From a virus (Duplodnaviria > Heunggongvirae > Uroviricota > Caudoviricetes), in the IMG/VR virus record IMGVR_UViG_2526164603_000008: a stretch of 16,457 nucleotides of DNA; one strand, 5' to 3'. Position numbers: made by a program. Of this stretch, positions 12,001 to 16,457 are shown piece after piece (the first letter of the stretch is position 1; each line of letters begins with the position of its first letter).

Positions 12001-15000
12001 TATAAGTGATGGCGTTCTTGACTGGCGTCTACAGATGACGAAACCAACTAACGGCACATGCGAATGGCAAAAAAAGTCTGGGGACGCTATACTGTCTATA
12101 GTTTTTGACGCAGAAAATTCGTCTACTACTGGTTTTCGTTTATACGATGATGGGCGGAAAAGGCGTGCTACGAACTTAACAATATCCTCAGGATGTACCC
12201 CTACAAAACTGTATAGGTTATTAAAGGATAACTGATCATGAAAAAGCGCGAGGAAGTAAGCAAGCTGCCTCGCAGACGTGATGCAGCATTAGCGGTTCCC
12301 TACAAAAAAGATGAGTTCATAAGCCCTTCTGATGACAAAAAATTTTCAAAGGCGAAAAGTTTTACATCTACATCTCTAAAAGATAAATACTTTAAAATCT
12401 AGCCCGGCCTCAGCGCCGGGTTTTCTTTGCCTCACGTTCGCCCACCTAAAAAACATAACCAATTGTATTTATTGATGTAACTCGCTAAACCATGCAGTTA
12501 TGATCCCTGCCGCATAACCTTCATCAGCCACATTTTCAAAAATAAATTTCCTTATATATCAGAATCATACTTCGTAGAGTTAATAAATCACCAAAATTCG
12601 TACCAATAGTTCTTGATAATGTCGAACTATTGGTTCATTATTATCGTCGTCAGCAGGACGCATTACTCACCAGGGCGGTGAATATACAACGATTCGAATA
12701 TGAATCTACGGCGCTGACAAAGCGCAATAACCAAAGTGAACTTTGGGGTGTGGTGAAGGGTTCATGGACGGGAATATGTCGCACGTAAAGCGGCGAGGCC
12801 TGCGGGACTATTGCCGAATTGAAGTAGGCCGAAACAGGTCGAAATGGGTCTCCCACCTACCACACCACCAAAGTTCATCAGGAGGTCTATATGACACGCA
12901 GAACTCAGTTCAAAGGCAATTCACGTTCTCGTCGTCGTGAGCGTTTAAAGGCAAAGGCATTAGCTAACGGCGTACTGGCCCGCGAAGAAGCAATAAGTTC
13001 AGAAGTATTACACCGCCCTACTCTAAGCAGAGCGCAGATTCAGGCTAAAGGTACTCACGAAACGCCTGAGCGCATAGAAGACGCTAAGCCAATTAAGTTC
13101 ATGGCACAGGACGTGATCTGGCAACAGAAAGAATACAGACGCAATCTGGAGCGAGCGGCCATTGTGTACGCGAATGAGTTTGGACATAAGCAACCAGAAA
13201 CTGGTGTATGTCTTCCAAACGTAGCCATTTACGCGGCAGGCTACCGGAAATCAAAACAACTGACGGCGAGGTGACTTGTGTTGGTCGCCAGAAAATGAAA
13301 TTAGGCAGCAAACCACTTATTTGAGGTGAGATATGACAAAATCATGGAGCGTACCTTTTCCTGAATCAGAAACTGAACATGATGGAATGCCTGTTTTCTG
13401 GAGATTCCAGGCGACAGTTGAAGAAGATGGGATAAAAATATTCGCACTTCAATATATAGCTTTTCATCAGACAGAGCATTATGCATGGTTGGTTCCTGCG
13501 CATTGGATTGTTAATTTTAAACCAGCACCAAATCAGTGGTTACAGGAATGGAAACAAAGGAGAAATAGATATGCAATTAAGAAAGTAGCAAAAAATGCAG
13601 AAAGATCTTTTGCATTCCCAACGAAGAAACTTGCCATTGAAAGTTTATTGCGCCGGAAGAAATACCATTTAATGAGAATCAAACAAGATTTGGCTGTTGT
13701 ATCAACTCTTGTTGATGGGATGAAGAATATTGATACATCAATACCAGTGAACCGCCCCGGAAATCCTGGAGACTAAACTCCCTGAGAAAGAGGTAAACAG
13801 GATGACTAAAAATACTCGTTTTTCCCCCGAAGTCCGTCAGCGGGCGATTCGTATGGTTCTGGAAAGTCAGGATGAATATGACTCACAGTGGGCGGCAATT
13901 TGTTCCATTGCCCCAAAGATTGGCTGTACGCCGGAGACTCTGCGTGTCTGGGTTCGCCAGCATGAGCGGGATACCGGGGGCGGTGATGGTGGGCTCACCA
14001 GCGCTGAACGTCAGCGTCTGAAAGAGCTGGAACGTGAAAATCGTGAACTGCGCCGCAGTAACGATATCCTTCGCCAGGCTTCCGCTTATTTTGCGAAGGC
14101 GGAGTTCGACCGCCTCTGGAGAAAATGATGCCACTGCTGGATAAGCTGCGTGAGCAGTACGGGGTCGGACCGGTATGCAGCGAACTGCATATTGCCCCGT
14201 CAACGTATTACCATTGTCAGCAACAGCGACATCATCCGGATAAACGCAGTGCCCGTGCGCAGCACGACGACTGGCTGAAGAGAGAGATACAGCGCGTATA
14301 CGATGAAAATCATCAGGTGTACGGTGTGCGTAAAGTCTGGCGTCAGTTGTTACGGGAAGGAATCAGGGTGGCCAGATGTACAGTGGCACGTCTCATGGCG
14401 GTTATGGGACTTGCCGGTGTTCTCCGGGGTAAAAAGGTCCGTACGACCATCAGCCGGAAAGCCGTTGCCGCAGGCGACCGCGTAAACCGTCAGTTCGTGG
14501 CAGAACGACCTGACCAGCTGTGGGTGGCTGATTTTACTTACGTCAGCACATGGCAGGGCTTCGTCTATGTGGCGTTTATCATTGATGTGTTTGCCGGATA
14601 CATCGTGGGGTGGCGGGTCTCATCGTCTATGGAAACGACATTCGTGCTGGATGCGCTGGAGCAGGCGTTGTGGGCCCGTCGTCCGTCTGGCACCATCCAT
14701 CACAGCGATAAAGGCTCTCAGTATGTGTCACTGGCCTATACGGAGCGACTAAAAGAAGCCGGATTACTGGCATCAACAGGGAGTACAGGCGACTCGTATG
14801 ACAACGCGATGGCTGAGAGCATCAATGGTCTTTACAAAGCGGAGGTAATACACCGTAAGAGCTGGAAAAACCGTGCAGAAGTGGAACTGGCCACACTAAC
14901 GTGGGTGGACTGGTATAACAATCGACGATTGCTGGGAAGGCTGGGCCATACTCCTCCGGCAGAAGCAGAAAAAGCTTATTATGCTTCCATCGGAAACGAT

Positions 15001-16457
15001 GATCTGGCAGCCTGAGTTCACAGATAAAACACTCTCCAGGAAACCCGGGGCGGTTCACAGATATTGAATATAACTTTGGACACAACCAAGAAACAGAAAA
15101 TTGGGTATTTTATTAGTACGAATAAGCACTGTGTATTCATTCCAGCGAGTGAATACACGGAGCAATGTCGCTCGTAACTAAACAGGAGCCGACTTGTTCT
15201 GATTATTGGAAATCTTCTTTGCCCTCCAGTGTGAGGGCCTTTTTATATGCATACCAATAACGCTTCACTCGAGGCGTTTTTCGTTATGTATAAATAAGGA
15301 GCACACCATGCAATATGCCATTGCAGGGTGGCCTGTTGCTGGCTGCCCTTCCGAATCTTTACTTGAGCGAATCACCCGTAAATTACGTGACGGATGGAAA
15401 CGCCTTATCGACATACTTAATCAGCCAGGAGTTCCAAAAAATGGATAAAACACTTATGGCTATCCAGACTAAATTCACTATCGCCACTTTTATTGGCGAT
15501 GAAAAGATGTTTCGTGAAGCCGTAGAAGCCTACAGAAAATGGAGGTCAAAATGATTCCGGTAGAACTGGCGAAAACCCCAGAGTTAAGTCGATTAAAAAG
15601 AGAGTATCACATTGCTGAGGCTCGTTACTGGCGTAAAGCGGGAGATAAATCAAAGAAACAACTGAACCGCCCCGGGTTTCCTGGAGAGTGTTTTATCTGT
15701 GAACTCAGGCTGCCAGATCATCGTTTCCGATGGAAGCATAATAAGCTTTTTCTGCTTCTGCCGGAGGAGTATGGCCCAGCCTTCCCAGCAATCGTCGATT
15801 GTTATACCAGTCCACCCACGTTAGTGTGGCCAGTTCCACTTCTGCACGGTTTTTCCAGCTCTTACGGTGTATTACCTCCGCTTTGTAAAGACCATTGATG
15901 CTCTCAGCCATCGCGTTGTCATACGAGTCGCCTGTACTCCCTGTTGATGCCAGTAATCCGGCTTCTTTTAGTCGCTCCGTATAGGCCAGTGACACATACT
16001 GAGAGCCTTTATCGCTGTGATGGATGGTGCCAGACGGACGACGGGCCCACAACGCCTGCTCCAGCGCATCCAGCACGAATGTCGTTTCCATAGACGATGA
16101 GACCCGCCACCCCACGATGTATCCGGCAAACACATCAATGATAAACGCCACATAGACGAAGCCCTGCCATGTGCTGACGTAAGTAAAATCAGCCACCCAC
16201 AGCTGGTCAGGTCGTTCTGCCACGAACTGACGGTTTACGCGGTCGCCTGCGGCAACGGCTTTCCGGCTGATGGTCGTACGGACCTTTTTACCCCGGAGAA
16301 CACCGGCAAGTCCCATAACCGCCATGAGACGTGCCACTGTACATCTGGCCACCCTGATTCCTTCCCGTAACAACTGACGCCAGACTTTACGCACACCGTA
16401 CACCTGATGATTTTCATCGTATACGCGCTGTATCTCTCTCTTCAGCCAGTCGTCGTG

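Follow-up and report, generated by a model that had tools for sequence, protein, structure and literature searches.

Two copies of the insertion sequence (IS) IS629, in inverted orientation, surround the genes cIII and kil in the leftward early (pL) operon of a Shiga toxin 2a (Stx2a) prophage of E. coli O157:H7 strain TW10246. Copy 1 was inherited, and copy 2 is most likely a new insertion, a reading to which we give a probability of about 0.6. The DNA analysed, hereafter the window, is the viral record IMGVR_UViG_2526164603_000008 (16,457 bp), and comparison with phage records indicated that it stretches from Q to the pL operon in the early region of an Stx2a phage of the 933W/24B type. It is also the entire draft contig AKLV01000035.1 of assembly GCA_000267145.1, so that on the right it stops where the assembly broke, inside copy 2, and not at an arbitrary cut. 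This assembly is a 2012 draft of 47 contigs, for which the Celera assembler combined Illumina reads with 3-kb paired-end 454 reads (PMC3593324). The collections searched comprised 5,426 complete E. coli genomes and 50,697 phage records.

IS629 copy 1 and the gene that it splits

Copy 1 lies in an early-left gene between N and cIII. The features of this part of the window are the following (coordinates, strand, description, basis).

13333-13747, plus strand: 5′ part (codons 1-138) of a 156-codon early-left gene between N and cIII, homologue of vb_24B_11c of phage 24B
13745-13747, no strand: left copy of the target-site duplication CAG, from the sequence and from the empty site of 24B, which has one CAG
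13748-15057, plus strand: IS629 copy 1, complete, 1310 bp, with left inverted repeat (IRL) at 13748-13772 and right inverted repeat (IRR) at 15033-15057
13802-14128, plus strand: orfA of copy 1, 108 aa, HTH_Tnp_1, from the list of open reading frames (ORFs) and profile matches; K107R results from a G at 14121
14083-14199, plus strand: ALIL pseudoknot, which stimulates the -1 frameshift joining orfA to orfB (Rfam RF01497, 119.9 bits, E = 3e-31)
14125-15015, plus strand: orfB of copy 1, 296 aa, with HTH_21 and the DDE integrase core rve; its frame is -1 with respect to that of orfA (NF033516 transpos_IS3, 316 bits)
15058-15116, plus strand: right CAG (15058-15060) and 3′ part of the split 156-codon gene, with its stop codon at 15114-15116, from the sequence and the 24B comparison

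The first bases of copy 1 are TGAACCGCCCCGG at 13748, and its last bases are CCGGGGCGGTTCA at 15057. IRL (TGAACCGCCCCGGAAATCCTGGAGA) and IRR (TGAACCGCCCCGGGTTTCCTGGAGA) are identical at 22 of 25 positions, with 13 identical terminal bases and ends of the TG..CA type. The element matches at 1309 of 1310 positions (99.9%) those annotated as IS629 in CP-1639 (AJ304858) and VT2phi_272 (HQ424691); the Prokaryotic Genome Annotation Pipeline (PGAP) names the same element IS3-like element IS1203 family. Copy 1 thus combines a length of about 1.3 kb, imperfect inverted repeats of about 25 bp, orfA and orfB in -1 frame, a frameshift signal, a 3-bp duplication and near-identity to IS629 copies, and by these characters the element is identified as IS629 (IS3 family), also called IS1203v. 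The ALIL pseudoknot is annotated likewise by PGAP in strain 9000 (NZ_CP018252.2, UK PT21/28). The orfA/orfB overlap contains TTTTG at 14089-93 and AAAAT at 14122-26, which are reportedly the functional slip sites (Chen and Hu 2006). IS629, a member of the IS3 family, transposes by copy-out-paste-in.

Phage 24B provides the empty site. It aligns with positions 1-13747 and 15058-15248 of the window, the two alignments overlapping by 3 bp at its lone CAG. Excising 13748-15060 in silico fuses the ORF that starts at 13333 to 15061-15116 and gives a 156-codon frame, identical at 155 of 156 positions to the intact product of vb_24B_11c (156 aa). No Pfam or NCBIfam family was matched by the 156-codon gene. 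The preliminary description of this DNA had placed at 13748-15057 a complete, IS629-like copy of 1310 bp, bordered by CAG on both sides, whose precise removal would restore the frame of a 156-codon gene. All of this was confirmed: the name by the 99.9% identity, the IS3-type orfA/orfB, the TG..CA ends and the frameshift pseudoknot, and the restored frame by the match to the 24B gene. The comparison with an IS-free prophage that it had proposed is supplied by phage 24B, with its single CAG and its intact gene.

The left junction of copy 1 was found at 100% identity in 28 of the 5,426 complete E. coli genomes, all of them UK O157:H7 (strain 9000 and the Z-series). Since it is shared with these 28 genomes, copy 1 is an old, inherited simple insertion and a lineage marker, and not a recent event. 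It ties TW10246, archived in the US, to the lineage of the UK strain 9000 (PT21/28), whose argW Stx2a prophage is collinear with positions 1-15663 of the window, with 2 mismatches in 15,663 bp.

IS629 copy 2 and its junction with the gene after kil

The interval between the two copies and the visible part of copy 2 contain the following features.

15295-15353, plus strand: lambda cIII thermoregulator RNA, spanning the start of cIII (Rfam RF01804, 88.5 bits)
15308-15448, plus strand: cIII, 46 aa, intact (PGAP on the identical sequence of strain 9000; Pfam Lambda_CIII on the identical gene)
15441-15554, plus strand: kil, 37 aa, intact (Pfam Lambda_Kil, E = 8e-22; PGAP annotation)
15551-15662, plus strand: a 62-codon gene (WP_000613346.1 in relatives) up to codon 37, where copy 2 interrupts it, from the alignment with strain 9000, where the gene is intact
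15663-16457, minus strand: inverted IS629 copy 2, of which IS positions 1310 to 516 (descending) are in view before the contig breaks off; its IRR is at 15663-15687 and an incomplete orfB at 15705-16457

Copy 2 begins exactly at the IS terminus and breaks codon 38 of the 62-codon gene that follows kil. The kil-to-IS junction reads AAAGAAACAAC/TGAACCGCCCC. Because the break falls exactly at the IS terminus, the junction at 15663 is attributed to the transposase. The alignment with strain 9000 stops at this same position; strain 9000 has an intact 62-codon gene there, and no IS. A repeat finder returned the visible part of copy 2 and its counterpart in copy 1 as two arms (14263-15057 and 15663-16457) of 795 nt each, 100% complementary and 605 nt apart. 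With its start precisely at the IS terminus, this repeat is far from anything that chance would produce. The 605-bp spacer holds the 3′ end of the split gene, cIII, kil and codons 1-37 of the 62-codon gene. The junction of copy 2 was absent from the 5,426 complete E. coli genomes, the 50,697 phage records, IMG/VR, the GTDB representative genomes and the JGI metagenomes, and two possible fusion ORFs across it had no exact match on record. Copy 2 is real and specific to TW10246.

The quality of the draft bears on this junction, and a base of copy 1 is instructive in this respect. Copy 1 departs from other IS629 copies at a single base, the G at 14121, in the A-run of the orfA/orfB overlap, which reads TGGAGAAAATGA where others have TGGAAAAAATGA. 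None of about 22,000 IS copies surveyed in complete genomes (5,620 records) carries this G. It is shared by the IS629 at a contig end of TW09109, a sister draft from the same sequencing project, and this contig-end IS629 is garbled, with a 1-bp insertion and a 237-bp internal gap: repeat consensus is unreliable in these hybrid short-read drafts. The G may be a real rare variant or, as its presence in the faulty sister contig suggests, a systematic draft-assembly error. If real, it changes Lys107 of OrfA to Arg. That it would cripple the frameshift is ruled out, as it falls in an unpaired linker of ALIL, leaves TTTTG and AAAAT unaltered and is synonymous in the orfB frame. It was also rejected as a marker of descent of copy 2 from copy 1, given that the visible part of copy 2 does not reach this base and that the same G recurs in the faulty copy of TW09109.

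One may then ask whether the kil-to-IS junction itself is an assembly or library artefact of the Celera hybrid draft, TW10246 having only copy 1 at this place. The window is a short, whole contig of an Illumina/454 hybrid assembly, the sister assembly has its garbled contig-end IS629, and the G at 14121, seen in none of the surveyed copies, is common to both drafts. Against this, the break is on the first base of the IS terminus, where a random chimera or an unrecognised mate-pair linker would put it about once in thousands, and the spacer is unique and non-palindromic, so that there is no fold-back. We rejected a fold-back or a mate-pair chimera as the source of the junction on these two grounds, and we give very little credence to an artefact of any kind.

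Origin of copy 2

Among the IS of O157, IS629 is reported as the most active, with a bias toward prophages (PMC5359411, PMC9943667), and an O157 genome has about 20 near-identical copies (PMC9943667). Nine close relatives carry, in a gene encoding an ASCH domain, an IS629 with its own 3-bp duplication (GTA). Strain Z869 (NZ_CP062782.1) offers a natural deletion anchored at an IS629 end (9081-10391 of its excerpt L007, compared with 17308-19087 of strain 9000 excerpt L005). Z869 lacks 1,780 bp, which hold what remained of the split gene, then cIII, kil, the 62-codon gene and the AAA ATPase gene, and a portion of the DUF669 gene, and no CAG is present on that side; copy 1 of Z869 thus has all the characters of an adjacent deletion. 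In the phage Stx2_EH2085, an IS629-family copy of 96% identity follows a cIII-like gene (LC645441.1, 20984-22293) and is flanked by the duplication ATA. The early-left operon is repeatedly eroded by IS629, with at least 3 separate events in close relatives and independent hits in Japanese Stx2a phages.

New insertions being common here, we favour an insertion origin for copy 2. On this reading it would be complete and would have arisen separately, from any one of the genome's roughly 20 near-identical IS629 copies, of which copy 1 is just one. If it is a simple insertion, its IRL end (...CCAGGATTTCCGGGGCGGTTCA) should be followed by AACTTTGCTTATGGCAGGCAC, i.e. the AAC duplication and TTTGCTTATGGCAGG, the remainder of the 62-codon gene. 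Insertion and deletion were weighed by the fraction of the lineage that has the IS in the ASCH-domain gene (9/28), by the match in orientation and by the counts of local events. Several points weigh against a simple insertion. The contig ends at IS position 516, before the far terminus of copy 2 and whatever target duplication may follow it, and a complete, simple insertion is no more than probable. At 4,614 bp downstream, an IS629 of the same orientation is present in nine close relatives, and Z869 has its IS-end-anchored deletion in the same operon, which makes a deletion origin a serious alternative. Polarity on pL and inversion of cIII-kil are predicted consequences.

A deletion would proceed as follows. 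Copy 2 would be the IS629 that relatives have in the ASCH-domain gene, and a deletion of 4,614 bp, with the IRR of this IS as its anchor, would have moved it next to kil. TW10246 would have lost in this way the remainder of the 62-codon gene, the recombination module of AAA-ATPase and DUF669, the anti-RecBCD gene and some 8 small genes more. A single step could have sufficed, by aberrant strand transfer that IEE may have assisted, or there could have been two, a new IS inserting in direct orientation and the two direct copies then recombining. In strain 9000 this IS629 (13479-14788 of excerpt L001) has the orientation of copy 2, with IRR leftward, and is 100% identical to it over the visible 795 bp; a deletion anchored at its IRR end would yield exactly the left junction of the window. 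It is present in 9 of the 28 genomes sharing copy 1. A direct precedent for an adjacent deletion is Z869, in which copy 1 is kept and the DNA that followed its IRR on the right is gone, and IS629-adjacent deletions whose sizes run from a handful of nucleotides up to more than 40 kb have been reported (in the part of PMC9943667 that cites Kusumoto 2011, and in bioRxiv 10.1101/2023.06.07.543989). For copy 2, the left junction is compatible with such a deletion, a suitably oriented donor IS exists in the nine relatives, and the right flank is beyond the contig. On the other side, this IS is found in only about a third of the copy-1 lineage, with no single-nucleotide polymorphism (SNP) of the window placing TW10246 in that subclade; simple insertions are locally at least as frequent as deletions; and the window offers nothing that separates the two origins. 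We consider the deletion unlikely, at something like one chance in four.

The two origins differ in what lies to the right. After a deletion, the IRL end of copy 2 should be followed by GTAAGTATGACCGCC, the 3′ part of the ASCH-domain gene (GTAAGTATGACCGCCTGATT), the left junction of that IS (CGTTAACCGTA/TGAACC) should be missing, and the 4,614 bp matching NZ_CP018252.2 3973913-3978526 (AAA-ATPase to DUF551) should be absent from TW10246. Should both the insertion and the ASCH junctions be present, TW10246 would have three IS copies, an intermediate of the two-step deletion.

More complex histories were also considered. Copy 2 could be one end of a larger inversion or translocation with a distant IS629, its far side being unrelated chromosome, or the junction could exist only in a subpopulation of the culture. 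Partners would be plentiful given the number of near-identical IS629 copies per O157 genome (PMC9943667), and the 795-bp arm matches 1,205 records at 99% identity or more. The contig breaks inside the IS, leaving the far side unconstrained, and large rearrangements are documented in the lineage of strain 9000 (PMC8743559). These documented rearrangements run between prophages, not between IS copies; moreover, recombination with a distant IS presupposes an IS at 15663, hence a prior insertion or deletion event. Such a history is improbable, and a new insertion remains our preferred origin for copy 2.

The cIII-kil interval, the rest of the window and known systems

Two small genes without assigned family or function are disrupted in TW10246, and cIII, with its thermoregulator RNA, and kil are unbroken. 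The present orientation of cIII-kil is, from collinearity with the IS-free phage 24B and with strain 9000, evidently the ancestral one. Beside these genes, two differences in layout were observed between the window and strain 9000 on one side and phages 24B and Stx2a_F422 on the other. A gene of about 400 bp, ssb/ea10-like (DUF2528), is missing from the former at 15248/15249, in the interval from the 156-codon gene to cIII; and after 15543 an AAA-ATPase/DUF669/anti-RecBCD module stands in place of the gam-bet-exo module.

Reciprocal recombination between inverted repeats inverts the segment between them and does not delete it. The inverted IS629 pair could thus flip the 605-bp cIII-kil segment by RecA-dependent recombination. 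To arrive at xis, int and the recombination genes, the pL transcript would have to traverse 2.6 kb of IS sequence. When the 27 complete genomes having both copy 1 and cIII-kil were examined for inversion of the segment, no fixed inversion was found in any of the 27, among which are the nine whose inverted IS copies are separated by 5.2 kb. That cIII-kil is a reversible switch driven by RecA, or that the pair acts as a small composite transposon able to move cIII-kil to other prophages, is in our view barely credible. Were there such a switch, each flip would detach cIII, which serves lysogeny, and kil, which kills the host, from pL, and the population would become mixed, with differing outcomes when this Shiga-toxin phage is induced. 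Arrival of the pair as a composite transposon is ruled out by the CAG duplication proper to copy 1 and by the ancestral place of cIII-kil.

The preliminary description had much of this arrangement right. Copy 2 is inverted and truncates the gene after kil, as it had stated, this gene being the 62-codon one found intact in relatives; the copies are identical over the 795 bp visible and 605 bp apart; and the orientation that it called ancestral is borne out by the collinearity noted above. It had also proposed that the pair can invert or delete cIII-kil. Inversion stands as the expected product of recombination, and deletion does not, inverted repeats giving inversion only. Lastly, it had read the identity of the copies as an indication of recent transposition, and this is not supported: copy 1 is inherited, each of the two prophage IS copies of strain 9000 matches the arm at 100% identity, and the draft consensus of repeats cannot be relied upon. 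With so many records matching the arm at 99% or more, identity between two copies does not show recent transposition. The lesson extends to other short-read drafts, in which the identity of IS copies within a contig is not evidence of recent transposition.

Elsewhere in the window, a few observations stand apart from the IS629 pair. At position 2071, a synonymous SNP in ant (ATT instead of ATA, both Ile) is private to the TW10246 contig, with 0 of 425 complete genomes carrying the segment having it; being private and synonymous, it was set aside as uninformative for placing TW10246 in a lineage. Just upstream of ant, the antirepressor gene, the segment 2712-2909 (minus strand) gave gathering-level Rfam matches to C4 antisense RNA, isrK and the c4 a1b1 target, and looks like an antisense immunity module of the P1/P7 type within an Stx phage. 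The 968-aa Toprim/helicase replication protein encoded at 4860-7763 (minus strand), equivalent to P of phage 24B, has Hint matches at residues 379-424 and LAGLIDADG matches at residues 579-634, both located between its primase and AAA parts, which suggests an intein with a homing endonuclease. Outside the window, stx2A of this prophage is broken in strain 9000 by the IS66-family element ISEc8 (NZ_CP018252.2 excerpt, 19-1427), an interruption that has already been published (PMC5359411, PMC6776261); the window begins in Q, and stx2A of TW10246 is out of view.

The two IS629 copies around cIII-kil are an ordinary polymorphism of O157:H7 Stx prophages, of a kind already well described. Differences in IS629 sites are already used to subtype O157:H7. 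Beyond strain typing the relevance is small; a phage can be trapped or crippled by an IS that inserts into an Stx prophage or anchors a deletion there.

The closest comparison is with strain 9000 and the Z-series, which have copy 1 at the identical site with the same CAG duplication, strain 9000 being collinear with the window up to the junction of copy 2. They differ from TW10246 in their intact 62-codon gene and the lack of an IS at 15663, and nine of them have the inverted IS629 in the ASCH-domain gene 4.6 kb further on. Z869 shares with TW10246 the same prophage and the same copy 1, and its IS end abuts, without a duplication, DNA that is kilobases away in relatives. In Z869, the deletion runs rightward from copy 1 and removed cIII and kil, whereas the window keeps both genes, and any deletion in TW10246 would run leftward from another IS. 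The phage Stx2a_F422 (AP012531.1, 19342-20651) has an independent IS629 in the same 156-codon gene, also with a 3-bp duplication; unlike copy 1, this insertion is after codon 3, in the opposite orientation, with the duplication AAA and as a single copy. Reference copies of IS629/IS1203v have the length, inverted repeats, frameshift layout and 3-bp duplication of copy 1, and differ from it by the G at 14121. Finally, the arrangement resembles transposons of the Tn10/Tn5 type and Tn6330, the latter built on a copy-out-paste-in IS, in that two identical inverted IS flank a short passenger. It differs from them in that cIII-kil, the passenger, occupies its ancestral place and copy 1 is flanked by a duplication of its own, and for these reasons we conclude that the IS629 pair arose in situ and not as a unit.

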